Notes: a model not told the origin generated them from the letters alone. Counted from the first letter of the stretch, positions 2-64,000 are shown. The stretch is DNA of 64,000 nt from an uncultured Planctomycetota bacterium (GCA_963823665.1 CAWGMQ010000003.1:128001-192000), one strand, 5' to 3'. Translations and numbers: made by a program.

Positions 2-1003
2 CAAGTAACGGTCCCACGTGATGTAAGCCGGCAGTCGATCCGTTTGGAGCACCGTCCACTCTGACATCGGCATCTCGCGCATCTTGACCTTGGTGCCACC
101 CGAAGCCGATTTTTTGTGATCCACGCGGCGACGCCCATAGGAGTAGGCTCCGGCGTAGATCGGATGGTGGAGCATTCGAGAGACCGTGGCCAGCGTGGGC
201 CGGCGCCATTCCAGTTGGCCCCGCCGTGAGCCTCGCTGCACTCGCATTCCCAAGCGGATTTTGTTCCGCACCAGATAGCGGTAGACCCGCCCGAAAGAGC
301 CCAGCTCGTCGAACGTGTCGAAAACCAATTGGACGATCGACCTCGCCTCTTCATCGGGGTCGATAACGACCTCGCCGGTGGGTAGTTTTAAGTACCCGCA
401 CGGTACGCTGAGGATTAATTCGCACCGCTGGGCCTTGTAAAGTTTGCCCCCTTCCAGGCGGTTGTGCATCGTAACCAGCTCATATTCACTCATGGTGCCT
501 TTCAGCCCCAAAAGGAGACGGTCGTTGGGGTCCCGCGGATCGTAGAGACCGTCCTCATCCGCCAGGATCGTTCCGAAGATGGAACACATCTGTAATAAGT
601 GATGCCAATCCTCGTTGCAGCGGGCCAACCGACTCATCTCGATCCCCAGGATCAAACCGACGTGTTCCATGGTAACTTCGGCCAGGATGCGATGAAATCC
701 GCTCCGATTTTCGGCCGTCTTGCCGCTGAGTCCTTGGTCGTCGTCGATGATCAGGATACGGTCGCGGGGCCATCCCAGTGCGATCGCGTGGTTGACCAGC
801 GCGTACTGGCGTTCGCGTGATTCTCGGTGATCGCGGATTTGCTGCGGAGAGGATTGGCGGACGTAGATGATCGCCAGCAATCCGAGGTGCCAATCCGTGA
901 TCAGGCCGGGCCGGACGCGACGTACGGTAGGATTCGCGGTGGGCACGGCCACCGGTTGCGGGTTTGCCGAGAGGAGCGGGCAGATGGTTTCACGAGCGCT
1001 CAT
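2..1003 (-). CDS. Large serine recombinase (resolvase + recombinase domains), 3'-truncated by window edge
   Basis: Manual translation from ATG 1003 (absent from ORF track because no stop is in the window): AIIYVRQSSPQQ, IIDDDQGLSG, EMSRLAR, YDPRDPNDRLLLGLKGTMSE, HPIYAGAY. Confidence 0.92.
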   Translation of the reverse strand, partial: MSARETICPLLSANPQPVAVPTANPTVRRVRPGLITDWHLGLLAIIYVRQSSPQQIRDHRESRERQYALVNHAIALGWPRDRILIIDDDQGLSGKTAENRSGFHRILAEVTMEHVGLILGIEMSRLARCNEDWHHLLQMCSIFGTILADEDGLYDPRDPNDRLLLGLKGTMSEYELVTMHNRLEGGKLYKAQRCELILSVPCGYLKLPTGEVVIDPDEEARSIVQLVFDTFDELGSFGRVYRYLVRNKIRLGMRVQRGSRRGQLEWRRPTLATVSRMLHHPIYAGAYSYGRRRVDHKKSASGGTKVKMREMPMSEWTVLQTDRLPAYITWDRYL

Positions 1004-1319: not shown

Positions 1320-1368
1320 TCCGGATCAGTGGGAGCCCTGGCGGAGCGATCCGCCAAGGCGACCCGGC
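1320..1368 (+). ncRNA. Group II intron 3' remnant (3' strand of DV + DVI)
   Basis: TCCGGATCAGTGGGAGCCCTGGCGGAGCGATCCGCCAAGGCGACCCGGC is nearly identical to 3036-3084; followed by exon GACATCC. Confidence 0.85.
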
Positions 1369-1408: not shown

Positions 1409-1825
1409 CTACGTGGTCGATGCTTTCCTGGATTTGCTTCCCTTAGCGGCCTTGACGGCTGAATTCTTGCGCGTGGAGGACTTGGCGATATTGGAGAGCG
1501 ACGTTTTTGCGGTGCGTTCGTCCATGAGTGGGCCGGTCAAGTCGGCGAGTGTGCCCCCGAGGACGAAGAGGAGCGTCACCATCGCATCAAGCGTTACTCG
1601 GGGCGAGCAGTTCTCGATTTTGGCCACCCGCGATTGATCCACGCGGGCCATTGCGGCGAGTTGCTCCTGCGTGATCTTGCGCTGCGTGCGCAACCGACGA
1701 ATGGCCATAGCCGTCGTGATTTTCAGGTCGATCAGGAGCGACTCTTCGTCGCTGAGGCCGAGGAAATCGGCGGTGTCCCCCTCCACCCATCCCGGCTTTC
1801 GGTCCACATCTCTGACTTTCCGCAT
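1409..1825 (-). CDS. XRE/HigA-like HTH antitoxin
   Basis: GW..GDTADFLGLSDEE then HTH ITQEQLAAMARVDQSRVAKIE; N-terminus may be affected by a deletion. Confidence 0.75.
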   Translation of the reverse strand: MRKVRDVDRKPGWVEGDTADFLGLSDEESLLIDLKITTAMAIRRLRTQRKITQEQLAAMARVDQSRVAKIENCSPRVTLDAMVTLLFVLGGTLADLTGPLMDERTAKTSLSNIAKSSTRKNSAVKAAKGSKSRKASTT

Positions 1826-2295: not shown

Positions 2296-2351
2296 CCTCT
2301 GGCTTCCCCTGGCTCCCCTGGGTGTTTGGCTTCCCGAGAGGGTGGGTGTCT

Positions 2352-3084
2352 TTGCGTCAGGAAAAGCTCGAGAAAGGGGGAAGTGCCTCGAAACACAGAA
2401 ACCTTTCATCGCGACCCTGCGGGTTAACGAATCCCGCCCGGCAGAGCCTGGCCGGCAGCCGGAAGCAAGTCTTGCGTGGGGAGGGGTGACCCTCACTGCG
2501 AAGCGTAGACAGCGAGTCCACATGCCATGCTATCGAGCCCCGAAATACTCATCGTGGGAGCCTCCGTTGTAGACACAAGCGGGGGCCGTGTCGACACGCC
2601 GCAATGGCCTGGCGTGTTCGGTCCTGCCGGGGTCCAAGAACATGGCGCAGGGACGCGAGGGTTGCTCGGGAACCTGAGAGCCCCATCCGTCTCCACTGAC
2701 ATTTCCGGCTCGGGAACCGGAATACCAACTCCCCGGCCCACGACCCCGCGTCGGGTCGCTGGGAGCGAACAAGACGCAAGGGTGGTATCGCCAAGCGAAG
2801 GCAACGAAGTGCGGCGAAAGGGGCGGATGGGAGTCGGAGTGCTCCGTAGTAGCAGTGAAGCGGGGGAATGGGCCCTCCCAGACCCTGTGGAGCGAAGGGG
2901 GCACCGTGTCGTGGACTGGACGCCGGAACCACGCCGAGGGCATTGGACCTCAGAGCGCGTCACCGCGAGGCGACCAGATCGTGTGAGGGACAGCGACGCC
3001 GCGACATGACGAGCCGGATGCCTTAATTGGGCACGTCCGGATCAGTGGGAGCCCTGGCGGAGCGATCCGCCAGGGCGACCCGGC
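2352..3084 (+). ncRNA. ORF-less group II intron, apparently complete (733 nt)
   Basis: 5' TTGCG after GGGTGTCT; DV GAGCCGGATGCCTTAATTGGGCACGTCCGGATC at 3011-3043; DVI ending GACCCGGC; putative EBS1 AGACAC (2571-2576) complementary to exon GTGTCT; removal restores GGGTGTCT^GGCTTCCC. Confidence 0.85.
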
Positions 3085-3120
3085 GGCTTCCCTCTGGCTT
3101 CCCTCGCAACGACCGAGAGA

Positions 3121-3350
3121 GATTCCAGACGCCCATCTTTTGGTCACGGTCGACCGGATTCCATTCATTCGCGACTCGCACAATCGGCGCACAACCACGA
3201 GATTCCAGACACCCATCGTTTGGTCACGGTCCCCCGCATTCCATTCATTCGCGGCTCGCACGTTCGGCGCACAACCACGGCCTCTGGTCATTTCCAGCAC
3301 GCATCAGGCGAGTGTCCGACGCTCCGCAGACGGTGGGTGTCTGACATCCC
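3121..3350 (+). repeat. Two 80-bp tandem units starting GATTCCAGAC(G/A)CCCATC, overlapping an ~85-bp segment repeated at 11664-11750
   Basis: 3121-3200 vs 3201-3280; CGGCGCACAACCACGGCCTCTGGTCATTTCCAGCACGCA at 3265 and 11666. Confidence 0.85.
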
Positions 3351-3409
3351 GGTGTCTGACATCCCTGACATCCCTTCTTCAATAAGTCCTCGGGGACGAT
3401 GTGAATCGA

Positions 3410-3578
3410 GGCAGGGTTGCCAGACACCCACAGATGGCACTGCGGAAAGTGGGTGTCTTTGCGTCACCCATCGATCGCAGAACGCGAACGGGTGCGAGTT
3501 TACGAGTGCCTGGCTTCTAACAAAACCCACTCCAGAGACCGGGCATCTGGCTCGCCAGACTTTGGGTGTCTGACTTCC
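3410..3578 (+). repeat. ~168-bp dispersed repeat, copy 2
   Basis: Near-identical to 2128-2295. Confidence 0.9.
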
Positions 3579-3601
3579 TTAGAGTTTGGGTGTCTGGCTT
3601 C

Positions 3602-3786
3602 AGAATGATAGCTGATACGACGCCTGCCCAGCTCTTCCACATCCACGTTTGAAACCCAACCGCTTCGGCTATCTTAGTAATAAAACCGGTTACTTCTTCC
3701 TTCGGTGGCATCGCGGTTAAAATTTTGAAGTCATCATTCGCAATATTATACTGCCGCTTTATCTCCTCTCTTGTAGGTATGCTCAT
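3602..3786 (-). pseudogene. Low-GC hypothetical gene fragment running into the CCAGACACCC repeat
   Basis: MSIPTREEIKRQYNIANDDFKIL...SAIIL then repeat-derived KPDTQ. Confidence 0.4.
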
Positions 3787-3899
3787 GAGTTGTCTCCATG
3801 TTATACGCCGCACTTAGCTAACCCATTGTCACAACAGCGTAATCTGATTCAGGGCGGACGTCTACAGGCGGATAGCCACAACCAAAGAGATTGTATCAC

Positions 3900-3929
3900 T
3901 TGACATCAAACGATAACAAACGATACAAG
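3900..3929 (+). promoter_or_regulatory. Sigma70-like promoter with two CAAACGATA direct repeats; probably leaderless
   Basis: TTGACA 3900-3905, TACAAG 3924-3929, repeats at 3907-3915 and 3917-3925, ATG at 3936 without SD. Confidence 0.55.
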
Positions 3930-3935
3930 AGACGC

Positions 3936-5948
3936 ATGGCATCCACGCAATGGCTGAATACGGACGAAGCGGCTCAATATCTGGGGCTTGGGAAAACATT
4001 TGTTTACGCAATGGCTCAGGAAGGTAAAATCCCGGCCAATAAAGTGGGTAAGCAATGGCGGTTTAACACTGTCCATCTCGACGAATGGCTTCGATCGAAA
4101 AAGGACATCAAGTCGTTCTTTAGCACTGTTGTTTTCAACATCGCTGACAACACCGAGCTTCGCCAACCGCAACAAGATGGGTATGACCGAATCTATGAGT
4201 TTTTCACGCGAGGCGGTCGCGTTGCAATTGTGCAATTTCCGGTAGGGTGCGGCAAGACCGGGCTTGCTGCAATCGCTCCATTCGGCATTTGCAAGGGCCG
4301 CGTTCTGTACATCGCTCCAAACCTGACGATAAACGGCGAATTATACGATAATCTGAACATTAGCAACCGTCAAAAGTGTTTCTGGCGGCGGCGGCATGTG
4401 CTCGATGAGAAAGACATGGCAAACGGGCCGTACGTAACGACACTTGACGACTCGAATGTTAATGTCTGCCAACAATCGCACATCATCGTTACGAATATCC
4501 AAGAGCTGGCGTTGGTAGACGAAAAGTGGCTTCACAAATTCGGCAGTGATTTCTTCGACATGATCGTTGTCGATGAGGCACATCACAATGCGGCTGCGAG
4601 CTGGCAGAAAGTGTTTCAGCAGTTTCCAGAGGCGAAGGTCTTAAACCTCACTGCAACCCCTTTCCGAAGCGACAAAAAGGAGATACAGGGCGACCTTGTT
4701 TACCGCTATTCATTCAAAAATGCCGCGATTAAAGGCTACATAAAAAAACTGCGTGCCAGTTATGTGGCTCCAGACGAAGTAGTGATGTTCACGGCGGAGG
4801 GCAAAAAGACGACTTACACCCTCGCCGAAGTTATGAAAATGAAGGAAGATGAATGGTTTAGCAAAAACATCGCCTTATCCGAAGCGTGCAACACGAATAT
4901 CGTAAATAACAGTCTGGAAAAGCTCGAGCATCTGAGGCTGACTGGAACACGACACCAGGTTATCGCCGTGGCGTGTTCGATTCGGCACGCTAAGCAGGTT
5001 GCAGCACTCTACAAAGAGCGGGGCTTCTCTTGCGAAATTCTGCACAGCCACATGAAAGAGGATGAGCAGACGCAAGTACTGCTCAGCCTGCGAAACGGGA
5101 CGCTTGATTGTATTGTTCAGGTCGCGATGCTGGGTGAAGGTTTCGATCATCCCAAGCTGAGCGTAGCGGCGATCTTTCGCCCATTCCGCACATTGGCCCC
5201 GTACATCCAGTTTGTCGGCCGGATCATGCGGGTCATCGTGCAAAATAACCCAACGCACCCAGATAATTACGGCCACATCGTGACGCACGTCGGCATGAAT
5301 CAGGATGTGTTGCTGAAAGAATTTCGCGAGTTTGAGAGGGATGACGAAGAGTTCTGGGCAAAAGTCATCGGCGGTGAAGAGCCCGAGCCCCCGGGCAACG
5401 TGACATCTGGGGCTGCTCGCCTCCGTGGCCACAACGACGTGCGGATCCACGAAGAGATCGTAGACAATCTGTTTGAGGAAGCGTTCCTGGACGAAGATGA
5501 CGAAGCCATGTTGAAGGCAATTCGCGAGCAGCTAGAGGCACTTGGGCTTGATCCTGCGGCTGCCCAGGAAATGTATGAAAAAGCTAAACGGGGACGTTCC
5601 GGCCTGCAAAAGGTCGATGCTGCGGAACCTTTTGCAGTGCTCCCACAGAAAGCATTTCAAGAGGCCCGAATACTGTTATTAGATGATGTAAAACACCACG
5701 CCAAGATACTGCTTAACCGATGTGAATTACCGCTGATGGGCATGGAGCTTCAGGCGAAAAAAGCAATCCTGGGTCCGAATCTGGCGGTGGCGACCATTAT
5801 GTTCAATAAGGAACTCGGTAAGAGGGCGGTAAATAAGGAAGCTCGCTCACAGTGGTCGGTAGACGATTTCAAAGCCGCGAAAGACCTCCTCCCGGATATC
5901 CTGAACGCATTAACCCGTCAACTGAAGAAAGTACTCGCGGATGAGTAA
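3936..5948 (+). CDS. Excisionase-type HTH fused to SF2 (ResIII-like) DEAD/DEAH helicase
   Basis: WLNTDEAAQYLG...GKIPANKVGKQWRF; PVGCGKTG, DEAHH, TATP, GEGFDHP, QFVGRIMR. Confidence 0.9.
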   Translation: MASTQWLNTDEAAQYLGLGKTFVYAMAQEGKIPANKVGKQWRFNTVHLDEWLRSKKDIKSFFSTVVFNIADNTELRQPQQDGYDRIYEFFTRGGRVAIVQFPVGCGKTGLAAIAPFGICKGRVLYIAPNLTINGELYDNLNISNRQKCFWRRRHVLDEKDMANGPYVTTLDDSNVNVCQQSHIIVTNIQELALVDEKWLHKFGSDFFDMIVVDEAHHNAAASWQKVFQQFPEAKVLNLTATPFRSDKKEIQGDLVYRYSFKNAAIKGYIKKLRASYVAPDEVVMFTAEGKKTTYTLAEVMKMKEDEWFSKNIALSEACNTNIVNNSLEKLEHLRLTGTRHQVIAVACSIRHAKQVAALYKERGFSCEILHSHMKEDEQTQVLLSLRNGTLDCIVQVAMLGEGFDHPKLSVAAIFRPFRTLAPYIQFVGRIMRVIVQNNPTHPDNYGHIVTHVGMNQDVLLKEFREFERDDEEFWAKVIGGEEPEPPGNVTSGAARLRGHNDVRIHEEIVDNLFEEAFLDEDDEAMLKAIREQLEALGLDPAAAQEMYEKAKRGRSGLQKVDAAEPFAVLPQKAFQEARILLLDDVKHHAKILLNRCELPLMGMELQAKKAILGPNLAVATIMFNKELGKRAVNKEARSQWSVDDFKAAKDLLPDILNALTRQLKKVLADE

Positions 5949-6198
5949 ACCGCCATCCCTGATTAGTGGCTGCAACGGTAAACCGGAAGCGTACCAAGCA
6001 AGCCGTCAGGTAACGTGTTGCCGTTGTGACACGAAAATCGTGAAAGACGGTGCTGCTGTCAAAATCCCAACGAAGACGCAAGGCTACGCGGCGAAAAAAA
6101 TCTACTGTCTAGTCTGTTTTGCCGCGATCGTTAAACAGACACGCCTGGATTTAACTCACCTTGAGCAAACATTGATCCCGATACACGCCGCACAATGA
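5941..6198 (+). CDS. Small putative zinc-binding protein
   Basis: CCRC...CLVC; overlaps the helicase stop. Confidence 0.65.
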   Translation: MSKPPSLISGCNGKPEAYQASRQVTCCRCDTKIVKDGAAVKIPTKTQGYAAKKIYCLVCFAAIVKQTRLDLTHLEQTLIPIHAAQ

Positions 6199-6229
6199 GA
6201 GTTGTGCCTGGGCGGTCAAAGGTGACGCG

Positions 6230-6700
6230 ATGATACTTCCGGCAGGGACAGTGAGGTGCAACATGTGCGGCGGTAGCGGTATCTCGAGGCTGAGCAACCT
6301 CGCATGCGAGGAATGCAACGCTTTTGGGTTTCGCCCGGCTGATCCGACACGGACCTTGCGGTGCAACATTTGTGGAGGCAGCGGGATATCGAGGCTATCC
6401 TCACAAAAGTGTGAAAGATGTGATGGATACGGCACCGTCGCTCCACCGAGCTTTGTTCGCGGCGGCGATGACAATGTGGTAAGGAGGGGTTTGAAAATAC
6501 CGTGGCCGAAAGGATTAGGGCAGCGGGGTGACGTGGTGCTTGCCACGGTGGAGATCGCATTGTTCGTTGCAGCAGCGGTTTTCGGAATACTCTGGATTAG
6601 AGCGTCAGGCAGCAGCTATGAAGCGTTGGCCGCGTTCTTCGCCCTAGTAAGCGGCGGGGGCGTCGGCCAGTTGCGTCGCTATCTAGGGCACCGGCAGTGA
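6230..6700 (+). CDS. DnaJ-type CxxCxGxG zinc-finger repeat protein with two C-terminal hydrophobic helices
   Basis: CNMCGGSG, CEECNAFG, CNICGGSG, CERCDGYG; hydrophobic C-terminus. Confidence 0.6.
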   Translation: MILPAGTVRCNMCGGSGISRLSNLACEECNAFGFRPADPTRTLRCNICGGSGISRLSSQKCERCDGYGTVAPPSFVRGGDDNVVRRGLKIPWPKGLGQRGDVVLATVEIALFVAAAVFGILWIRASGSSYEALAAFFALVSGGGVGQLRRYLGHRQ

Positions 6701-6873
6701 ATCGTCGTCTGATCGTGTTCCCGATCCAAGTCGACCACGACATGGGCGGTGAATAGCTCGGATTATCCGACGCCAAGAAGATTGGCGGTTGCTGGGAGGC
6801 GTCGCTTGCCTTACAAGGTAGAGAATCGATGCCTGCGGGTAGTCATGTTGCCAATCACTTAACGATTATTAGT

Positions 6874-7530
6874 ATGGACAAATCCACACTTACGGTCGAA
6901 CTATTGCTGGATGAGGCGAAGATCTTCTCAGAACAAGAATCGGTGCACCCAGAACCGACAATTTTCGGCGTGACCGATGGAAAAGCCATCGGCACCTATC
7001 TCGAGCATAAGTTTCAGCAGCATTTAGAAATAAAGTATGTGCATGCTCCTGGAAATTCTGCGAGCGGCATCGACCTGCCCGGCCTCGCGGTGGATATGAA
7101 AGTAACAAGCATTCGTCAGCCGCAGTCGTCGTGCCCTTTCAAACATGCTCGTCAAAAGATCTACGGCCTCGGATATTCGTTGCTTGTTTTCGTATATGAC
7201 AAGACAGATGATTCAGCAAATCGCACCGCGATTTTGAACATCCAACACACCATCTTTATTGACGCCAAACAGACGGGCGATTTCCAGATGACCAAGGGCT
7301 TGCGCGAAATCATCGAACGGGAAGGCAATGAGGACGACCTGGTTTCTTTCATGCAAGACAAAATGCTGCCGGTGGATGAGATCGAGGTCCGTCGGATCGC
7401 ACAGGATCTTTTGAAATCGCCCCCCGAGCAAGGCTATCTTACAATCTCGAACGCACTGCAATGGCGGCTTCAGTATGGTAGGGTGATCGTACAAGCCGGT
7501 GCAGTAGCAGGGATTACAAGGATACGGTAA
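6874..7530 (+). CDS. Type II restriction endonuclease (NspV-like by recall, unverified)
   Basis: GVTDGKAIGTYLE, IDLP...VDMKVTS (PD-D/ExK-like), QPQSSCPFK; directly upstream of an MTase. Confidence 0.75.
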   Translation: MDKSTLTVELLLDEAKIFSEQESVHPEPTIFGVTDGKAIGTYLEHKFQQHLEIKYVHAPGNSASGIDLPGLAVDMKVTSIRQPQSSCPFKHARQKIYGLGYSLLVFVYDKTDDSANRTAILNIQHTIFIDAKQTGDFQMTKGLREIIEREGNEDDLVSFMQDKMLPVDEIEVRRIAQDLLKSPPEQGYLTISNALQWRLQYGRVIVQAGAVAGITRIR

Positions 7531-7534
7531 ATCA

Positions 7535-9055
7535 ATGGCTTCTGGAAGGATCGCAGCGGTGCCCGATGAGTTCGGCGATTTTCAAACTCCTGAAACCTTG
7601 GCGGCGAGTGCATGTCGGCTTCTTTCGGGACGTGGCCTGAACCCGGCTTCTGTTCTCGAACCGACCTGCGGTGTGGGCAATTTTCTGCTAGCGGCAATCG
7701 AGCAGTTTCCCGATTTGACGACCGGAAGCGGCATCGATATTAATAATGACTATGTGTGCCTGGTTAGAAAAAGGCTAATCGACGGCTCTTATGCCGATAA
7801 GGTGAAAGTCCTTCAGGAGAGCTTCTTCGACGTCGACTGGAAGACCATTCTCCACGATTTGCCGGAACCAATCCTCGTTGTCGGAAACCCGCCGTGGGTG
7901 ACGAATTCGACACTCGGCGTGATCGGAAGTTCAAACCTGCCGAAAAAATCCAACTTCCAGAATTTCAACGGGCTGGAAGCCCTTACCGGCAAAAGCAATT
8001 TCGATATATCGGAATGGATGCTGATAAAACTGTTGGAAATGCTCGATGGACGTAGGGCAACTCTGGCCATGCTATGCAAAACGGCGGTTGCCCGAAAGGT
8101 CTTGGTCAATGCTTGGAAAAACGATGTCGGCCTAGCTGGTGCCGAAATCTATCCAATAGACGCCGCGGCGTCGTTCGGTGCTGCCGTCGATGCCTGCCTG
8201 TTGGTCTGCTCTCTGTCGCCCGCCAGTCACGGTCGGGATTGCCGCGTTTTCAAGAGTTTGGAAGATTCAATGCAGGTCGCGACCATCGGCTTTCACGATG
8301 GCCAGTTGGTGGCGGACGTTTCGGCCTACGAGCGTTGGAAGCACTTAAGTGGAAAGGAAGTCTACAAGTGGCGTTCCGGCGTCAAGCACGATTGCTCGAA
8401 GGTGATGGAACTGCGAAGAGAAGGCAATAACTTTCGCAACGGATTTGACGAACTAATTGATTTGGAATTGGATTATGTTTATCCGATGTTGAAAAGCTCG
8501 GAGATTACTAATGGGAAGAGCAAGCAACCGACCCGCTGGATGCTGGTTACACAGAAAGCCGTAGGCGATGAGACATCGGCCATACGATTGGACGCACCAA
8601 GAACTTGGGCGTACTTACAGAAGCAAGGCGAATTGCTGGATCGCAGGGGCAGCTCAATTTACCGGAATCGTCCTCGATTCTCGGTGTTCGGCGTCGGCGA
8701 TTACTCGTTTGCACAGTGGAAGGTGGCAATTTCTGGATTTTACAAGAAGCTGCAGTTCGCGACTATTGGTCCCCATGAGGGAAAGCCGGTAGTTCTTGAT
8801 GATACGTCGTATTTTGTGGCGTGCCAAAGTGAGCGGGAAGCCCGATTCATCGCGGATTTGCTAAACTCTGACACTGCCCGCGAGTACTTCTCTGCGTTCG
8901 TGTTCTGGGATGCAAAACGTCCGATAACGATTGACATACTGCGGCGGCTCGATCTGGCCGCTTTGGCGTATGAGCTCGGCTCGATCGACACTTTGGAGAG
9001 TTTTCGGGCAAAATCGCGAACGCACCAGCCCTATCGCCAAGTTGAGCTATTCTGA
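7535..9055 (+). CDS. Amino-DNA methyltransferase (gamma order, N6-adenine type)
   Basis: GDFQTP, LEPTCGVGNF (motif I), GNPPW (motif IV). Confidence 0.9.
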   Translation: MASGRIAAVPDEFGDFQTPETLAASACRLLSGRGLNPASVLEPTCGVGNFLLAAIEQFPDLTTGSGIDINNDYVCLVRKRLIDGSYADKVKVLQESFFDVDWKTILHDLPEPILVVGNPPWVTNSTLGVIGSSNLPKKSNFQNFNGLEALTGKSNFDISEWMLIKLLEMLDGRRATLAMLCKTAVARKVLVNAWKNDVGLAGAEIYPIDAAASFGAAVDACLLVCSLSPASHGRDCRVFKSLEDSMQVATIGFHDGQLVADVSAYERWKHLSGKEVYKWRSGVKHDCSKVMELRREGNNFRNGFDELIDLELDYVYPMLKSSEITNGKSKQPTRWMLVTQKAVGDETSAIRLDAPRTWAYLQKQGELLDRRGSSIYRNRPRFSVFGVGDYSFAQWKVAISGFYKKLQFATIGPHEGKPVVLDDTSYFVACQSEREARFIADLLNSDTAREYFSAFVFWDAKRPITIDILRRLDLAALAYELGSIDTLESFRAKSRTHQPYRQVELF

Positions 9056-9126
9056 AACGTTGACGCGTCTATTCGGTGATTCAAAACCAAGGCGGGGCAG
9101 GCGTGCGGAGTGCGAGAGCGATGGAG

Positions 9127-9804
9127 TCAGGCCAGAGCGTCATCGGAATCTTGCTCCTGACCATCCCGATCGAACGAGTCCGCATACTGCTGTAATACTT
9201 CTGACATTTCATACCGGCTTTGTTCAAGATCTGTCTCCACATTCAAGCCGAAATCGATGGCTTCTAGACCGGCGAGAACCTCGCTCATGGTTGTAGAAAA
9301 GGCGTGTAGACTGATTGTCTGATTTAGTGGGGTTGCATGCTTGCCATCCCGATCGATGGGGTAGCGATAGGAGAATGATTCGGGATCGATGCGGGCGAAC
9401 TCGGACGCCGTTGTCAGTGTTTTTTGCAGGAAGAACTCCAGATCATTGTCGTTTGGGAACAATCGTCTGAGTATCTTCGCGGCAGCTTCGGCGAGCGGCA
9501 CAAGCCGGTGGTCGTTCCAGAGTTTTCTTGGGAAGTCATGAATACCCTTAAATGCACACAGCAAAGCTGGCGTATAGATGACGTGCTTTAGATACAATTC
9601 AAATGCGTGCCGATATAAGAAAACAGCAGGATACGCTTCGTAATCGCGGAAGCCGTACTCCCTGGCGAGGAGTTCCTTCGCCAACATCTCTGCTGCACGG
9701 CTATATCCTTTGGCAAATACGCCGAAGTGATCCTTCGGTGTACTGCCAAAGCCAATACTGAAATCGTGTGTGTTGCTGATCGTGTTGTAAAAAGCCATGG
9801 TCAC
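9127..9804 (-). CDS. Hypothetical protein, HEPN-like
   Basis: YPAVFLYRHAFELYLK, HRLVPL, DPESFSYRYP pattern. Confidence 0.55.
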   Translation of the reverse strand: MTMAFYNTISNTHDFSIGFGSTPKDHFGVFAKGYSRAAEMLAKELLAREYGFRDYEAYPAVFLYRHAFELYLKHVIYTPALLCAFKGIHDFPRKLWNDHRLVPLAEAAAKILRRLFPNDNDLEFFLQKTLTTASEFARIDPESFSYRYPIDRDGKHATPLNQTISLHAFSTTMSEVLAGLEAIDFGLNVETDLEQSRYEMSEVLQQYADSFDRDGQEQDSDDALA

Positions 9805-10162
9805 GCACCTGACAAGCCCGTCTCAGTAAAACCACAGATTCCATGCGCCCAGACACACTCATAATAGTTTGGTTCGGTAACTGGTACTATGCCCACGGCC
9901 TGGCTTCGTCGCATTTCCCCGCCACATTTGTCTCACGCACCAGATAGCCGAATTTTCCTGCCTCGTCAAAAAAAGACGGGCCAGTTACCCACCCCCCGCC
10001 TGCTTCAGCGTTGTGGTTCACACTCCGCCGGGGCGTGGATAACTGGCCCGGCATCCTGCCATTAACCACTCATCACGCGGCTAAGCGTAAATCCTTACTG
10101 TGTCAGTCGGATGGCTAAATAGCCTGTTTTCAGGCTGTTTTCGCGTAAGGAGATTCCAGACA

Positions 10163-10472
10163 TCGCGCCAAGAAGCTCGGAAAGGGAGGATCATCTTAAA
10201 TGTGAAACCTTTTAGTCGAACCCTGCGGGTATACAATCCCGTCCGGCAGAGCCTGGCCAGCAGCCGGAAGCCAGTCTTGTATGTGGGGAGGCGACTCTCA
10301 CTGCGAAGCGTAGACAGCGAGATCAAACGCTGTGCGATTGAGCCCCGAAATTTCCCTCTTTGTTCTGAGCCCTCGTCCTTGTCTGACGCGGGGGGCCGCG
10401 CCGGGCATTAGCGACACCTGGACCCACAAGCGTGCCCGGTCAGACCGGGGTCGAGGGACATGGCGAAGGGGG
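10163..10472 (+). ncRNA. 5' fragment (domain I) of a related group II intron
   Basis: Starts TCGCG after ATTCCAGACA; shares ACCCTGCGGGT, GGCAGAGCCTGGCC, CACTGCGAAGCGTAGACAGCGAG, GAGCCCCGAAAT with 2352-3084; putative EBS1 TGTCTG at 10380-10385. Confidence 0.8.
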
Positions 10473-10783
10473 ACCGCGAGGCACCGATCGATCGCAGAAC
10501 GCGAACGGGTGGGAGTTACGGGTGCCTGGCTTCTAAGAAAACCCACTCCAGAGACCGGGCGTCTGGCTCGCCAGAGGTTGGGTGTCAGTCTTCCGCTGTG
10601 CGCGCTGTCGGCCGCGAGTCATCTGGCAATCGCGGGGCGCGAACTGGCGCGAGTCATCTGTGCCTGGCTTTTCCCTGACTCAGTCCGGAGAATGGTAACC
10701 GGCTCGTCTCGGGCTCCTCTCCGTGTCATGTGTGCCTGGCTTTTCCCGGAGCCGAGTCCGAAGAATGGATGTTTGGCTTGCCC

Positions 10784-11422
10784 TTACCAAGTTGCCGGTT
10801 TATGGATCGTTCCGTGGGCATCGGTGAGGGTCCCCGGGAGTTGGCATGTGGGCAGAAGCGAGGTATCCACGAGCAGCGATTTCGTGGCCACCTTGCGTAA
10901 TTCAAAGCTGGGTTTCCGGCCGGGCCTGCACGGATGCAGCACCAGCACGTTCTTTTTGAATTTCTGCCGCACGAGGCGGATCGGCTCCGCCAGGTCGGAA
11001 TCATTGGAGACGATCACCGCTGTTTCATACTCGTCGTCGAAAGCGTCCACCAGTAGGTAGGTCGCAATGTTCACGTCCGACCCTTTCTCCTCGCTCTTCA
11101 TCACCTGCACCGTCTTCGGTCCCGTTGCCGGCATCGGGTGCAACGGCATGCGTGTCGGTTTTTCCAAGTAACTGCCGAGGTGAACCGTCAGATGAGGCAG
11201 GGTCCGCAGGGCACGCAGATAAGTTTGCTGCCGAACCCGTTGTTGCGGATTATTCGACCGGGCGTTGACGTGAGCTGTGAAATAGCGGATGCGAGTGATC
11301 TGATTGCGTGGAGGAGGAAAGGACGCTTGGCAAAAAGTAGCGAGGTCAAGCCATTTATGTGGGGTGCCTTTCAGGCAGCCATAATACAGGTTGAAGCCGT
11401 CGATGTAGACGTTCGTCTTCAT
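10784..11422 (-). CDS. NYN-domain (PIN-like, LabA/DUF88) nuclease
   Basis: VYIDGFNLYYG, EEKGSDVNIA, IVSNDSDLAE acidic catalytic motifs. Confidence 0.92.
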   Translation of the reverse strand: MKTNVYIDGFNLYYGCLKGTPHKWLDLATFCQASFPPPRNQITRIRYFTAHVNARSNNPQQRVRQQTYLRALRTLPHLTVHLGSYLEKPTRMPLHPMPATGPKTVQVMKSEEKGSDVNIATYLLVDAFDDEYETAVIVSNDSDLAEPIRLVRQKFKKNVLVLHPCRPGRKPSFELRKVATKSLLVDTSLLPTCQLPGTLTDAHGTIHKPATW

Positions 11423-11435
11423 CCATGATCGCTTG

Positions 11436-11507
11436 GGGAAAAGCTAGGGCCACCCGGTGAAGGGTGGCCCTGCTACCCAACCGCCGAAGTGGTTGGGGGG
11501 GTGATGT
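11436..11507 (-). ncRNA. Putative ~70-nt leader RNA: cUUCGg hairpin plus terminator-like hairpin
   Basis: CCCAACCAC-TTCG-GCGGTTGGG (11476-11497); AGGGCCACCC-TTCACC-GGGTGGCCCT (11446-11471) followed by AGCTTTT. Confidence 0.6.
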
Positions 11508-11513
11508 AAGCAT

Positions 11514-11542
11514 ATTATGCTTCAAAATGACCGGATTGTCAA
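11514..11542 (-). promoter_or_regulatory. Near-consensus sigma70 promoter
   Basis: TTGACA-17 nt-CATAAT on the minus strand. Confidence 0.75.
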
Positions 11543-12025
11543 CAACGGCATTCTAGTGGCGTCGAATCGCAGCATGTAGGTTCGCTTGTGAAGCATGGCA
11601 CCTGTGCGACTGGGTGCTCAATGATCCCCACTCCTCGAATGCAGCAAGGAAGGAAATACGCCGTTCGGCGCACAACCACGGCCTCTGGTCATTTCCAGCA
11701 CGCAAGAGACGCGTGTCCGACGCTCCGCCGACGGTGGTTTCTGACATCCGTGGACGGCCCATACAAGGATTCCCGATCGCGGCGCCGGCGAGTACCGCGC
11801 GAGTGAGTTCACGCTTCGCTGAACGAGCATTTTCCGAAAAGGGCGCGCGCTCTCCCCGCTGGATTTCCGCCTTGATCTCTGGGGGAGTGTCAGAGATTTT
11901 GGTGTGGCCCGGCCGTTCATCCGGCTCGCCCGTTCAACTTTCGTTGACGGAGGAGTCGCATGCTGGGGATCGATCTCGCTCTCGGGCGGCCGAGCGTGAA
12001 ACCACCGATGGCGGAGGCTTGCGCG

Positions 12026-12258
12026 ATGCGTGACTCGAATCGACGTGGCTTCCTGGCAACCTCAGCCGCGGCGGCAGCCGCGCCACTCTTGCCGGATCTT
12101 GGCTTTCTTGCCCCGGTCAGCCGGGCGGCCGCCACCGATACGCGAATCGACCCCAATCAGGTCCGCCATAGCCCGAGCATCGGTCAGTTGATCAAGCTGA
12201 TCCAAACGACGCCACGGGACAAGTGCGTCCCCGTCTTCCTCGAGCAACTTCAGGCCGG
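12026..12258 (+). pseudogene. N-terminal fragment of a Tat-exported hypothetical protein, cut at a CAGACACCC repeat
   Basis: MRDSNRRGFLATSAAAAAAP twin-arginine signal; reading becomes repeat-derived at GGGTTTCAGACACCC. Confidence 0.6.
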
Positions 12259-12358
12259 GGGTTTCAGACACCCGCATTTCCCTCTGTGAGGGAATTCAGG
12301 CGGCTGACAGCGCCCAGGAGCTTGCAAGGAAATTGTGGATGTCTGCAACTCCCGTCGA

Positions 12359-13492
12359 TCAACGCACTCGCGGAAGCGTGCTCGGCGCGAGGCGATAAAC
12401 CATCGACTTCAACCAGACCCCGATCTCGAGCACATCCACGTCTCCATTCTGGCTGAGCGCCGTCCATTTCGGGATCGGGTTAGCAACAGTGCCGCGGGGG
12501 ATGGATTCGGTCAGGCTGTAGGCCGTGGCCACGCCCTTGGGATTGATGCGGCCGATCGCGTAGCCGTTCAACGTCGAGAACCAGAGCGAACCATCGGCCG
12601 ATCCCAGATACGTGTAAAATGCGCTGGCAATCGCGGCAGGGAGCTTGTAAGGCGTGATGGTCCCGGCGGTCGACACCCGATCGACCACGTTCTGCCCCTT
12701 CGCGTTGGCAGCGGTCACGATCAGAGTGCCGTGTGGCCCATTCCCCACCTTCGCATAAGCCGCGTGATTGATCGGGAATTCAGTGACGGCGCCCGCTGGC
12801 GAGAGCCGGCCGAGGACCGAGTTATTGCCGGAGAGCTCGGTGAACCGGAGATTGCCGTCGGCTCCCACCGTGAGCGAGTTGAGTACCGTTTGGGGACCGA
12901 CGGACGGGAGGGGGAAAACCGTGATCGCTCCAGCGTTCGTCACCAGGTCGACGTAGTTCTGGTTCTGGCCGGACGCATTCTGGCCATTCCAACCGAACCA
13001 GGCGTCGTCGCCGGAACCGCTGACGATCCCGACCGGCAAGGTGAATCCTCCGGAAGGATCAGGAACCGCAAATTCGGTGACTGCACCGACCGGCGTCAGT
13101 TCGCCAACGAAAACGTTCAGGCTTTCATTAGAGGTGGAAGCATAATTTAACCCCGCGAACCACACGTTGCCATCCGACCCAGCCGTGAGCATGAAGGCAA
13201 ATGCGTTGCCGGGGACGGGGAACGACGTGAGCTTACCGCTGGGGCTGATCCGATCGATCTCGTGTGACAAAGGGTTTGCGGCGAACCACCCAGGGTCTTC
13301 GCCGAGCCACAGGTTTCCGCCCGGACCGGAGGCCACCTGCGACGGGTAGTCGGACAGCGTCACAGGCAGATCGATCGCCTGCGACAAGAGCCGGCGGCCT
13401 TCGAGGTCTTCGATGGCGAACGGCCGGCTGCGTTTCGGTGGCCGTCGTGATGGGCGGGGGAGCGACTTCAACGCGGAGAAGAACCATGCCAT
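12359..13492 (-). CDS. Vgb (virginiamycin B lyase)-like beta-propeller protein with planctomycete N-terminal motif
   Basis: EDLEGRRLLS; repeated GPGGNLW / GSDGNVWF / GADGNLRF / SADGSLWF blades. Confidence 0.8.
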   Translation of the reverse strand: MAWFFSALKSLPRPSRRPPKRSRPFAIEDLEGRRLLSQAIDLPVTLSDYPSQVASGPGGNLWLGEDPGWFAANPLSHEIDRISPSGKLTSFPVPGNAFAFMLTAGSDGNVWFAGLNYASTSNESLNVFVGELTPVGAVTEFAVPDPSGGFTLPVGIVSGSGDDAWFGWNGQNASGQNQNYVDLVTNAGAITVFPLPSVGPQTVLNSLTVGADGNLRFTELSGNNSVLGRLSPAGAVTEFPINHAAYAKVGNGPHGTLIVTAANAKGQNVVDRVSTAGTITPYKLPAAIASAFYTYLGSADGSLWFSTLNGYAIGRINPKGVATAYSLTESIPRGTVANPIPKWTALSQNGDVDVLEIGVWLKSMVYRLAPSTLPRVR

Positions 13493-13864
13493 GATCGAGC
13501 CTCCATGCTTGAATGAGTCCGGGTTGTGGGCTCTCTGACGTGTTTATCGCTGACGTCGCCAACATGTACAAGGCCAATCGCGAGTTACCGTTCGGAGAAA
13601 CCAGCTTTGGCGCGAATACGAGCGCGGACTTGGTCCGCTGTGGGTGCTGATACTCAGCAGCATCACGGACGTGTTCGCGATGCTTCCGAACAAGACCAAG
13701 GACCCTTCTCCCGAAGAGGCCAAGAGGTGTCGGAAAGTTAGCGATGAGGCTTGCAGGATGAGCTTCGCTTTGTTGCAGACTTCGGCCAACCAGGCGGCTT
13801 TCATGCAGGCCGCTCGCAGCCTGCTTTGTGTCAAGGCGACGCGCGACCCGCACGACCTCCAGTA

Positions 13865-14008
13865 CGTGGGCGAAGCCTCGACCCACACGTCGAGATCCTT
13901 CGTGTAGCGCGGCTCCGTGTACTTAATCACCGCAAATCCGCCTACGACGAGGTAGCGAACTTTATGCTCGTTGAAAACTCTCAACAGATCTTTGAAGTCT
14001 GAGTTCAT
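13865..14008 (-). pseudogene. Truncated nucleotidyltransferase
   Basis: YLVVGGFAV...PRYTKDLDVWV, interrupted at the duplicated segment. Confidence 0.7.
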
Positions 14009-14238
14009 CCGGCTTCATGCCTTGTTGTCGGTGATAGAACTCGATCAATTCCCACGCGGCGCGATAAATTGCAGCGTCGCCTTGCCGTTGCCAGTACTCG
14101 ATGTCGAACGAACGATCTGCGTCCTTAATGCGGCCGAATCGCTCCATCACGAAATCAGTCTCGGTGCTTTCGACTGAGGCAGAATTGACATTGAGACTTG
14201 CTTTGGTTGCTTGTGTTTCTCGAGAACGCTTTCTCATG
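13962..14238 (-). CDS. Small partner protein upstream of the nucleotidyltransferase; start uncertain
   Basis: DRSFDIEYWQRQGDAAIYRAAWEL...RLQRSV, overlapping the NTase start. Confidence 0.55.
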
Positions 14239-14743
14239 GCTGATGCCTCGGTTAACCTGGCGCCCGTCGATTCGTCCGCGGGTTGAAACGGTCGGCCTGT
14301 GCGTGGGTCAATTATGCGAAGTCCACCGTATTCTTGGAAGGGTCGGTTCATTCGCAAGGGAAGCTGGAGGTCTAGGCTTGCAGGATGAGCTTCGCCTTGT
14401 TGCAGACTTCGGCCAACCTGGTGGCTTTCATGCAGGCCGCTCGCAGCCCGCTTTGTGTCAAGGCGACGCGGAGACCCGCACGACCTCAAGTATCCCGTGG
14501 CGGCATTCGAAGACACGAGCCTGGCGAATGCGGAGTGGCGCCCCTACCTTCTGGCCTCGTCGGTCCATGCGCTCCACGGTACTGCGAGCGCCGACTCGAC
14601 CGCGCTCGTCCAGGCGCGGAAGGCGCTGATGTAATCGGCACGACTTGCGTCAGCGGAATCCGCGCGGCAACTCGGAAGCACAGTGTATGTTCTTTTTTCT
14701 TTCGAACTGAGCTTGAGTGCGATCGAGCACACGAGCCGAGGGC

Positions 14744-16708
14744 TCATGTTGTTCCGAGCAGGAGAGACGCGACGCTCGCTGCCACCGGCGCCAGGATCGA
14801 AACGCCGGCGCGGAGGTGCTCAACCGCACCTGAACCTATTTGCATGCGTTTTTCGAGGCTCTTGCGGTTGGCGTCCCAACCGGAGAACTTAGCCCAGTCC
14901 AGATCGAACGCGGTGATCGGATACGCCGAATCAATAAGATCGGACCCGACAGAGGCGAGGAGTGTATACAACGGTATGTAGACCAACGCGAGCAGCCCTG
15001 TGAAATATCCTCCCTCGAGCAGCCCGTATTCGGGCGGGAAATGCAGCAGCAGCCCCTCCGGTGGCCAAGATTGCCTGTCGTAAGGCGCCGTTGGCCAGCA
15101 CGGTCAGGGCAATGATCGCTCCCAGCACCGTGATGAAGCGCTGCAAGTAGGCCCGCAAGTCGATAATGGTCTGAATTCCTGCTTGAAGGGAGCTTACGGG
15201 ACGGCCGCCTGTGCCTTTTTCCGTAAACGTTTTCACGGCGCGGCGCGGACGTGCCAGATCCCGGCCATGGCGACCAGCGCGACCGCAGAGGCGAGCGTGC
15301 TCACGATCACCATCTTCAGTTGGTGATGGGCCAAATTGGAGTCGGGCACGATGAGGGTCAGGAAGAAAACGGGCAGGACGAAAAAGAAAGCAGCGGCCGT
15401 GGCCTTCAGCGGGATATCACGATTCAGGCGGACGCCATAGTCCAGCCGCAGCCTCGACCGCCAGCGCCAGACCGGCCCAATAATCGCGGCCCAGAAAGCG
15501 ACCTGACCGGCGACCAGGCAAATCCAGACCAGAGTTTTCGGCGAATGGAGAAACGTCCAGTTCCTCGAAGACAGCCACGGACCGGCCCACATGTAGTCGG
15601 CAGTAATGATCAGGAGCCCGGCAAAGAAGCCAAGGAGTACTCTCATGAGGATCTTGATCGGTATTCGATCCGTGTCGGATTCCTTCAGCGTTGATGGAAA
15701 GCTTACCGCTTCCTGCGTCGAACTGGGATCGCTCACAATCGAGACAGCAGGAGTCATGGCCGAAGCCGTTTCTGGTGCGCTCTTCAGAAACTCCCTCAGC
15801 TCGTCTGCCATGTCTCGAGCTGTTGTGAAACGGTCGGTGGAACGCTTCGACATCGCTTTCAGGCAGATGCGTTCGAGCTCCTTGGGAATCGTGTCGTCGA
15901 TCTGGCGCGGTGGACGAGGTTCGACGGTGGCGATCAGGTCCAGGAGTTCGACGAGGGCCTCGACCTTGTCGTGCGCTTTCGCGATGAACGGTCGTCTCCC
16001 GCTCAGCAATTCGTACAACACGACCCCAAGGCTGAAGATATCGGAGCGCCCGTCAACCCTGTGTCCCTCGCCCAGTGCTTGTTCTGGGCTCATGTACGAG
16101 GGAGTTCCCGCGACTCTTGCGCCGCTGCCAAAGTCCTCTTCCTTGAGCGCCAACCCGAAGTCGGACAGGAATGGCTTCCCCGAAGCATCAATCAGAATGT
16201 TGGCTGGCTTGACGTCGCGATGAACCAAGCCGTGCGTATGGGCGCAATGAAGGGCTTCGGCCACGTTCGCCACCAGCAAGGCGGCGGCGCGGCAATCGAC
16301 CCGTTGTTGTTTCAGTGTTTTCGAGAGGTCGGTCCCGTCGATAAATTTCGAGACAACGTAGCAGGGGCAGTTATCCGTGCTTCCCACATCATGCACTGGG
16401 ACGATGCCGGGATGGTCGAGATTGGCGACCGTGCGAGCCTCGGCCAGATACGCTTCGGTATCTTCGGGTTGCGAGATCAGGCTGGCGTGCGGCACCTTGA
16501 CGGCGACGGGCCGGTTCAGTTGCTCATCGTGAGCGAGATAGACGAGGCCGAAGGCCCCTTGGCCCAGCACTTTCTCGATGCGATAGCGACCGATCCGCTG
16601 GGGATGCTCGGCAGGCGCAGCCCCACGTTGGGAGATCGGTTTCCCTTTGTAGTCCTCCGTCACATCGAGTGCATTGGTTTCGTCCACGTCTGCTGTCGCC
16701 ATGCTCAC
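14744..16708 (-). CDS. Ser/Thr protein kinase with multi-TM C-terminus (apparent frameshifts near 15240 and 15040)
   Basis: LGQGAFG, VAVK, HRDVKPAN, DFG, GTPSYMSPEQ; hydrophobic helices continue through ORFs 14931..15236 and 14744..14986. Confidence 0.8.
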
Positions 16709-16993
16709 CCATGCCCGTCATCTTCGTCAGCTCTGGATCAGGTTCGATTTTACAGGCATGATTCGAGATCGGCCACAACCCATCAATCATCGTCAAGCCT
16801 GGGCGGACCTCTATTCGGACGCCGGTTGGTAACAAATTAGTAACGGCTTCGGCAACGTCAGCCGCATACGGCCACATCGTGAAATCACCAAGGTGGCGAC
16901 GCGCTAGCCCTGGATTCGCAGACTTCAGGCGCAGCGGCAACGTTTTCGGGCGGGACTCAAGGAAAAGGGGAGAAGTCAGGGAGAAGTCAGACA

Positions 16994-17031
16994 TTGCGCA
17001 AGAAGCTCGGAAAAGGAGGATCATCTCAAAT
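16994..17031 (+). ncRNA. 38-nt 5' remnant of the intron type seen at 10163
   Basis: CAGACA|TTGCGCAAGAAGCTCGGAAAAGGAGGATCATCTCAAAT matches 10163-10201. Confidence 0.7.
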
Positions 17032-61177: not shown

Positions 61178-61493
61178 CCTTGCCTCCTGGCAACGTCGTC
61201 CCTGACGCTGGCAGTACGGAACAAACGATCATTGTAACGGGCAAATCTCCCAATCGCTAGGATCGGCTTTTCGGGTGCCTTGGAATTCCTCTTTTTCCTA
61301 AAGAAATCCCGTCCCGCGTGCGCCCAGAACGCTTAGCGGGACGCTGGCCACTGCCATACGCTTTCCTGCAACCGGCGTTGCGGCGGCTTTTCACCTAAGC
61401 GTTGCTCGATCCTGCCCCATTTCTGATTGGGCGTTCCGGCTGCGCCGCCGCGGGGATGTCGCCGGGTCGCCTTGGGGGATCGCTCCCCCAAGG

Positions 61494-63913: not shown

Positions 63914-64000
63914 CTCCCACAGATCCGGGCTTGCCCAATTCAGGCACCCGGCTCGTCATGTCACTTGTTCGCTACGAGACGGCATACCGAGTGGATCGCG

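Follow-up and report, generated by a model that had tools for sequence, protein, structure and literature searches.

Group II introns of two lineages in the two strands of a REP-like repeat of a planctomycete genome

Results

Introns A and B at the left end of the window

We analysed a stretch of 64,000 nucleotides (the window) from an uncultured Planctomycetota bacterium (GCA_963823665.1 CAWGMQ010000003.1:128001-192000; G000:C3:128001-192000 in our numbering), in which two group II introns, here named A and B, adjoin a short near-palindromic motif resembling repetitive extragenic palindromic (REP) sequences. The genome, G000, measures 16.46 Mb in 12 contigs. In our reading, which we hold with a probability of roughly 0.85, lineages A and B of one group II intron class spread through this genome by retrohoming into the two strands of the repeat. 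A preliminary description of the locus had placed both introns, a stub, the 3′ ends and an empty site, and all of these positions and sequences agreed with the DNA. The features that carry the argument are listed below; EBS1 and IBS1 are the first exon-binding site of the intron and the matching intron-binding site of the exon, and RF02005 is the Rfam model of group II intron D1-D4 (domains I to IV; cut-off 49 bits).

1320-1368 (+): 3′ fragment of an A-type intron, 5′-truncated; A positions 685-733 (blastn, 98% identity over 49 nt); exits into GACATCC
2344-2351 (+): end of the 5′ exon of intron A, GGGTGTCT, with IBS1 GTGTCT at 2346-2351; occupied half of the REP-like motif
2352-3084 (+): intron A, a complete group II intron of 733 nt without an open reading frame (ORF), from 5′ TTGCG to 3′ CCCGGC; RF02005 139.5 bits over 2428-2642
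2571-2576 (+): EBS1 of intron A, AGACAC, in a 9-nt terminal loop, GUAGACACA (RF02005 consensus structure)
3011-3043 (+): domain V hairpin of intron A as folded, 33 nt, with AGC at positions 2-4 and a 2-nt bulge on the 3′ strand
3044-3084 (+): domain VI of intron A; the fold leaves a GA unpaired, and its A3078 is a candidate branch point, seven bases away from the 3′ end
3085-3092 (+): start of the 3′ exon of intron A, GGCTTCCC, directly after C3084; second half of the REP-like motif
3201-3350 (+): unoccupied inverted-doublet element of about 150 nt, GGAATC-CAGACACCC ... core ... GGGTGTCTGACATCCC, with outward-facing motifs at both ends
10149-10162 (+): 5′ exon of intron B, GGAGATTCCAGACA, the other strand of the REP-like motif, with IBS1 CAGACA at 10157-10162
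10163-10468 (+): intron B, 5′ TCGCG, 3′-truncated in domain I; RF02005 103.9 bits over 10233-10460; EBS1 TGTCTG at 10380-10385
16994-17031 (+): 5′ stub of a B-type intron, 38 nt, after CAGACA at 16988-16993 (blastn, 94% over 33 nt)

The boundaries of intron A were set by comparing filled with empty sites. Its domain V folds as ((.((((((((((.....)))))..))))).)), close to the usual hairpin of about 34 nt with AGC near its base, and domains V and VI together (3005-3084) fold at -48.1 kcal/mol (z -4.77). In domain V of the window intron and of all A and B copies seen, the G of the AGC triad stands, by eye, opposite an A, and the fold leaves both bases unpaired; the usual partner of this G in domain V is U. 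The likeness of the window intron B to other B copies stops at about 10468-10472 (blastn and alignment).

A profile search of G000 with RF02005 gave 31 matches, 28 of them above the cut-off, and the copies traced in the genome amount to about 33 A and B 5′ junctions and seven nested introns. The model was found in 55 of the 121 genomes searched (G000 included) and in 44 of the 72 genomes of the same family.

Both strands of the repeat are occupied

The empty motif at 3335-3350, GGGTGTCTGACATCCC, is a 16-nt near-palindrome and the commonest form; within it, TGTCTGACA is self-complementary, as its reverse complement, except for the centre base. As the motif is near-palindromic, one strand gives GTGTCT^ and the other CAGACA^, five bases apart. 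The proposal that both strands of one repeat are used was borne out when the copies were mapped across the genome: GGGTGTCT precedes 19 of 20 A copies, the other one following GGGTGTCC, and CAGACA precedes 8 of 13 B copies at their 5′ junctions, each time after the GG(G/A)-rich sequence of the motif's other strand. The exact junction GGTGTCY^TTGCGTC occurs 27 times in G000 (the 20 A copies plus short stubs) versus 0 times for the reversed pattern, and the 3′ exons of A copies read G/A-N-N-W-T-C/A-C. The pattern recurs elsewhere. In G001, a genome of the same genus, CAGACA precedes three of four readable B junctions and CACACA the fourth; in G030, of another genus, GGGTGTCT precedes both readable A junctions.

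The unoccupied motif GGGTGTCTGRNWTCC is present 71 times in G000, compared with 0 for the control. The idea of a short repeat as target needed one amendment: the repeat is the terminal motif of a larger repeat system and not a free-standing word. The 150-nt element that carries it at both ends has at least 44 matches in G000, scattered between ordinary genes, and its ends pair in folds. Bounded by the motif, each element offers, per strand, one B site inward and one A site outward. In a search of 73 genomes, the element is also abundant in G001; G008 and G030 have only weak matches, and the remaining 69 gave none. A reading of the repeats as integron attC sites was considered and rejected: the ORFs between repeats at C11:546-585 kb lie in both orientations and include, among others, those of ribosomal protein L19 and an aminotransferase.

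Near-identical introns in dissimilar surroundings

Thirteen complete ORF-less A copies of 733 nt were found by blastn, namely the window copy and 12 others 97-99% identical to it, together with one further ORF-less copy interrupted near its 3′ end. In six more copies, about 1.37 kb with a 465-aa ORF stands in place of A positions 560-651, so that the preliminary description of intron A as lacking an ORF holds for the window copy and is complemented by ORF-bearing siblings in the same genome.

These copies could have multiplied passively, carried by a transposing host repeat or by segment duplication, and not by retrohoming into pre-existing repeats. The host elements are themselves repeats in dozens of copies, two A copies stand in tandem 24 nt apart (locus L008) and six lie within 30 kb on contig C11, all of which would suit passive copying. 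Against it, the intron bodies have a median identity of 97.6% (98.9% among ORF-less copies), whereas the 112 nt upstream have one of 60.7%, with more than 90% in only 1 of 190 pairs. Such diverse flanks beside near-identical bodies argue that the A copies entered different pre-existing sites and were not duplicated with their surroundings. The contexts vary as well: A copies sit in both arms of the 150-nt element, beside a transposase gene (L007) and, in the window, in a local repeat named X, and some sites are alike only over the proximal 15-20 nt or so. With 71 motifs still empty in addition, we consider passive copying very improbable. An orthologous empty site was sought in G001 with the flank L007:3300-4514, which belongs to a multicopy transposase element, and this search gave only paralogous empty ends, ...GGTGGGTGTCT^GCCATCCC.

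The remaining B junctions read CAGACG, GCGTCC, CCATCC, CGGACG and CAGGAA, one each. GCGTCC belongs to a divergent B-like copy with the loop GGACGC, a fully compensated change. The B copy at C11:703037 (L012) has a 3′ exon, CCCATCC..., that continues into the core of the repeat element. None of the B copies carries an ORF.

Likeness to B ends at one shared position in five B-type 5′ fragments (about nt 112, after GGAAGYGAG); the sequence beyond it is unrelated and differs from fragment to fragment, and two of the five resume B sequence further along. They lie at the following positions.

L080, C3:793870
L081, C3:915433
L083, C5:1516721
L087, C10:1134203
L088, C10:1212078

A six-base pairing between EBS1 and the 5′ exon

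To follow the pairing across genomes, domain I (D1) and the 5′ flanks were aligned for 24 intron lineages from 22 genomes, one locus per genome, and six loop columns were compared with the last six exon bases strictly by alignment column. The loop pairs at six of six positions in 17 of the 24 lineages. Mean pairing is 5.375 of 6; random reassignment of exons to introns gives 2.96 +/- 0.24, and none of 10,000 shuffles reached the observed value; two poorly pairing rows are 1-nt or 5′-end misalignments that were left uncorrected. When all 5-nt exon windows from -1 to -18 were scanned without bias against all 5-column intron windows, over about 370 aligned D1 columns, the EBS1 loop was the only D1 segment that covaried with the 5′ exon, the signal reaching -7. 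By-eye candidates for EBS2, the second exon-binding site, were not consistent and were dropped. An A-rich tract is visible by eye at about -9 to -16 of the 5′ exons.

The hexamers are unpaired in the Rfam consensus and stand in the terminal loop of the homologous D1 hairpin, whose flanking 9-bp stem is 81% paired in the alignment compared with 37-56% for slid controls, with five pairs changed on both sides. Their identification as EBS1 in the preliminary description was therefore upheld: the flanks of the copies are those of the repeat, and the hexamers, rather than being paired internally, covary with the exons. The comparison shows that each lineage would find its site mainly through this one six-base pairing.

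A and B in separate clades

In a maximum-likelihood tree of D1 with the EBS1 columns removed, A and B fall into separate, well-supported clades. The A clade includes introns of G030 (EBS1 AGACAC), G040 (TGACAC) and G062 (TGGCAC), and B groups with an intron of G037 (TGTCAG) and with the GGACGC copy inside a clade supported at 100/99. Neighbouring EBS1s in the tree differ by single bases. The two introns had been called sisters, a relation this tree contradicts, since each stands among introns of other genomes that carry other EBS1s; by this phylogeny, A and B are cousins in one widespread intron class.

This result bears on the history of the target. B may never have been retargeted: a TGTCTG-like EBS1 would then be the older state, and use of the opposite strand a by-product of a near-palindrome that happens to hold CAGACA. 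That A and B are not sisters fits this account, as do the self-complementary core TGTCTGACA and the EBS1 TGTCAG, one base from TGTCTG, which occurs in the closest outgroup of B and in several other lineages. On the other side, B junctions lie in the context GG(G/A)..CAGACA of the motif in G000 and G001 alike, whereas the TGTCAG relatives in G014, G003 and G040 follow (A-rich)...CTGACA at sites unrelated to the G000 repeat, and the 150-nt element occurs in only 4 of the 73 genomes searched. We regard a history without retargeting as possible but doubtful; it departs from the reading of retrohoming into both strands only in what it says of the past.

A probable source of reverse transcriptase

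The 465-aa protein of the ORF-bearing A copies matches TIGR04416 (326.5 bits, cut-off 300) and the reverse transcriptase (RT) domain RVT_1; no HNH domain was found in it with Pfam. It resembles group II intron RTs of solved structure, its PDB relatives including RTs of diverse classes at similar E-values. The frame is intact in two of the six copies (C6:911560-912957 and C6:1319998-1321392). As possible donor of RT for intron A, the preliminary description had suggested the outer intron at the window's right edge. The frame of this outer intron, which lies past the window edge, carries frameshifts and one stop (tblastn), and a nested intron splits its domain VI; with the frame broken, this donor is unlikely. 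The idea of service in trans holds nonetheless: we infer that the ORF-less copies are served by the protein, 465 aa long, of the two A copies with intact frames.

It could also be that the whole population consists of dead relics of a past burst, with no present splicing or movement. The RT frames are broken in four of six copies, many B copies are truncated or internally deleted, stubs are as short as 8 to 38 nt and domain VI is split by a nested intron in seven hosts. We nevertheless think this unlikely, given two intact RT frames, a median identity of 98.9% among ORF-less A copies and seven nested introns that are identical over 300 nt. Contigs from four soil runs, three of RNA and one of DNA, cover parts of the intron interior, some with 0 differences; for the RNA libraries these parts are window 2404-2880 and 2982-3083, several records showing no difference. 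The RNA contigs speak weakly against relics, as DNA carry-over is possible; the contigs leave the unique flanks uncovered, the multicopy intron outweighing them, and contigs cannot show transcription.

An intron of another type within domain VI

At the right edge of the window, an outer A-type intron is interrupted by a second intron to form a twintron; the insertion was placed by comparing interrupted with uninterrupted domain VI.

61461-61493 (-): 3′ end of domain VI of the outer, ORF-bearing A-type intron; exits into GACATCCCC (GACATCC)
61494-63913 (-): inner intron, 2420 nt, after GTGGGAG in the outer domain VI; RF02012 105.5 bits, RF00029 63.4 bits
61575-63458 (-): ORF of the inner intron, with RT, maturase and HNH endonuclease (Pfam RVT_N, RVT_1, GIIM, HNH; TIGR04416 342.3 bits, cut-off 300)
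63914-64000 (-): outer A-type intron upstream of the inner one, domain V and start of domain VI (blastn, A 652-700); extends to C3:193892

The other nested introns start at approximately the following positions.

C11:558706
C6:1321443
C3:1263880
C8:678068
C8:519605
C6:913782

All seven nested copies in G000 lie in domain VI of A- or B-type hosts, namely four A copies with an ORF, one A copy without, one B copy and the GGACGC copy, and they are 100% identical over 300 nt (their first 290 nt plus 10 nt of host domain VI). A contig from the soil DNA run shows the same junction between nested intron and host. An HNH-bearing intron of another type is thus shown to home only into domain VI of A and B introns, forming twintrons. 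By eye, a candidate EBS1 of the nested intron, UUCCCA at about intron nt 326, is complementary to UGGGAR.

A RayT-like gene beside the motif

The flank of the A copy at L007 is an element of roughly 2 kb that is present many times over; its matching pieces number 60 in G000 and 46 in G001. At L007 and L016, a gene lies between outward-facing motif arrays.

L016 6529-7785 (+): RayT-like gene, 418-aa ORF, between outward-facing (inverted) motif arrays

The nearest Atlas clusters score 0.96 with the 418-aa protein, and 13-20% of their members carry Y1_Tnp; many of its homologues are named 'REP element-mobilizing transposase RayT' by JGI. A PDB sequence search with the protein gave nothing meaningful. 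On the strength of these clusters and names, of a sub-threshold NCBIfam match and of the flanking motifs, the landing pad seems to be the REP of a RayT-like (Y1/HUH) transposase system in multiple copies, in which the 150-nt elements would be doublets resembling REPINs (hairpin-forming REP doublets). The gene may be a divergent branch of planctomycete Y1 transposases that behaves like an insertion sequence (IS).

The motif often stands in tandem arrays of 22-30-nt units, with up to about eight units beside the RayT-like gene. Such arrays make tandem intron insertions possible, as with the two A copies at L008.

L007 2960-3260: tandem motif array
L016 6287-6340: tandem motif array
L009 7507-7690: tandem motif array
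Window 3335-3370: tandem motif array

Other features of the window

Intron B is joined at its truncated end to the right half of the local repeat X. We saw X in the window at 2175-2296, 3457-3580 and 10487-10594 and beyond it at C3:198135-198261 and C3:200512-200638; its close copies number only five, all on C3 near the window. At four places X is preceded by an 8-nt stub of intron A (TTGCGTCA), and the same X sequence, starting at the same point (ATCGATCG...), adjoins intron B cut at about nt 306.

10487-10594 (+): right half of repeat X, joined to truncated intron B; ends GGGTGTC; 93% identity to 2186-2296

The intron and repeat cluster is surrounded by genes for a large serine recombinase (Resolvase and Recombinase domains), which is cut by the left edge of the window, for an HTH_3 protein and for an HTH_17-ResIII-helicase protein. 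Between repeat elements, at about 3.6-10.1 kb, the DNA looks richer in AT by eye and may be an integrated element.

2-1003 (-): large serine recombinase
1409-1825 (-): HTH_3 protein
3891-5948 (+): HTH_17-ResIII-helicase protein

The GC skew of the plus strand switches sign near window position 40000, from +0.04 to +0.07 before it to -0.10 to -0.02 after it; the plus-strand introns lie in the positive part and the minus-strand twintron in the negative part. Over the genome, intron orientation agrees with local skew in about two thirds of loci, as measured in short windows with the replication origin not mapped.

Discussion

The following mechanism would account for these observations. The A/B class encodes an RT/maturase without an endonuclease domain and would spread by retrohoming. 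The A loop AGACAC pairs with GTGTCT, with insertion at GGGTGTCT^GRNWTCCC, and the B loop TGTCTG pairs with CAGACA, with insertion at GGGAWNYCAGACA^CCC, on the other strand of the same motif and five bases away. Most copies would have lost the RT gene and would depend, for splicing and movement, on the 465-aa A protein acting in trans.

Several points weigh against this account. Splicing and mobility were not observed, and the soil contigs, which cannot show splicing, contain no exon-exon joint. The Rfam model of domains V and VI, RF00029, gave no match on intron A at E<=1. Five of the 13 B junctions differ from CAGACA, and CCATCC, CGGACG and CAGGAA do not fit; the copy after CCATCC, at C6:913070, is a full B copy that has no complementarity to its exon. 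Several B copies are truncated or internally deleted and have no EBS1, the copy at C11:703037 is the only complete and uninterrupted one, and mobilisation of the ORF-less B in trans by the A protein is an assumption on our part. The scan revealed no EBS2 partner and no second covarying segment, although a conserved partner that does not covary would be invisible to it; as six base pairs cannot alone explain the specificity, further determinants are needed. For the RayT-like gene, the 418-aa protein has no Pfam match, its match to the NCBIfam family REP_Tyr_transpos (NF047646; E 3e-8, 33.6 bits) lies below the cut-off of 80, and the gene is multicopy and IS-like, a departure from the typical single-copy, vertically inherited state of REP-associated tyrosine transposases (RAYTs).

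Among known systems, the nearest to this one is that of Thermosynechococcus elongatus (Mohr, Ghanem & Lambowitz 2010, PMC2882425), which harbors dozens of related intron copies in families that differ in EBS and hence in target. Its ORF-less derivatives arose by ORF deletion and are mobilised in trans, its introns prefer other mobile elements (an IS200-family element and other introns) and its inner introns are identical in diverged outer hosts (PMC2882425). G000 shares the EBS-diverged families, the ORF-less copies, the mobile-element targets and the identical inner introns in diverged hosts. Unlike in T. elongatus, as presented there, two non-sister lineages in G000 have as their shared target both strands of one short near-palindromic repeat, and the nested intron is of another Rfam D1-D4 type, has an endonuclease and enters domain VI, not the start of the ORF. 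Moreover, no EBS2 pairing was detected in G000, the 16.5-Mb host genome is that of a mesophile-type planctomycete, and our work is sequence analysis alone.

RmInt1 of Sinorhizobium meliloti homes into ISRm2011-2 (PMC1802570, PMC5010178). Like RmInt1, the A/B introns have a protein without an endonuclease domain and a homing site inside a repeated mobile element; by the cited accounts RmInt1 has one IS target and keeps its ORF, whereas the G000 introns target RayT-like terminal repeats on both strands and are mostly ORF-less. Class C (IIC) introns insert after terminator stem-loops or at the inverted repeats of integron attC sites (Zimmerly & Semper 2015, PMC4424553), and introns without endonuclease (En-minus) prime from replication forks (PMC4424553). 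When compared by features, A and B resemble class C in being En-minus, in their short exon pairing and in having intergenic imperfect inverted repeats as sites. Unlike class C introns in that account, they match RF02005, have a 33-nt domain V and insert inside the palindrome at a point set by a covarying 6-nt EBS1; unlike at attC sites, ordinary genes in both orientations lie between the G000 repeats, not integron cassettes. The same review notes the rarity of ORF-less introns in bacteria and places most bacterial introns outside housekeeping genes, often amid other mobile DNAs (PMC4424553).

The landing pad shares with REP/REPIN-RAYT systems (PMC3337134, PMC3116915, PMC5581495) a short palindrome repeated between genes and the inverted doublets of this motif. 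Inverted copies of the motif also flank a gene, which is a Y1-type transposase gene in those systems and a candidate for one here, with scores below curated cut-offs. The landing pad differs from the systems in those accounts, in which typical RAYTs are single-copy (PMC5581495), by a multicopy gene, a long doublet spacer (about 118 nt) and common tandem motif arrays. The nested introns differ from those of Methanosarcina acetivorans, in the form outlined in PMC4424553 and PMC2882425, by a single nesting level, by their place in domain VI and by being of another type than their hosts.

A literature search, with subscription journals outside it, gave no paper that links group II introns to REP, REPIN or RAYT targets or describes such introns in planctomycetes. 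What is new here is a near-palindromic REP-like target used on both strands by two non-sister lineages, an apparent reliance on EBS1 alone and a cross-type nested intron that is specialised for domain VI.

A further step can be offered only tentatively. Read on its two strands, the core TGTCTGACA gives CTGACA and CAGACA, and a single EBS1 substitution (TGTCAG/TGTCTG) might have flipped an intron between the strands of the palindrome, the whole forming a stack of three storeys: the REP/RayT system, the A/B introns and the intron of introns. We consider this conjecture rather less probable than its contrary. If the strand flip were true, it would have doubled the sites per repeat on the strand favoured by an endonuclease-less intron, and if the stacked reading were true, each storey of mobile elements would live in the one below.

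From a biological perspective, these introns address the question of how group II introns reach high copy number without killing their bacterial host, and the A/B population is a clear new example of the known spread of introns without gene damage. G000 unites four routes to this end: change of target through EBS1, loss of the RT with service in trans, harmless repeat sites and homing into introns. The geometric point is that one palindromic repeat serves two intron lineages, one per strand. Finally, the 24 natural EBS1/IBS1 pairs are ready material for working out the target rules of a little-studied En-minus class.

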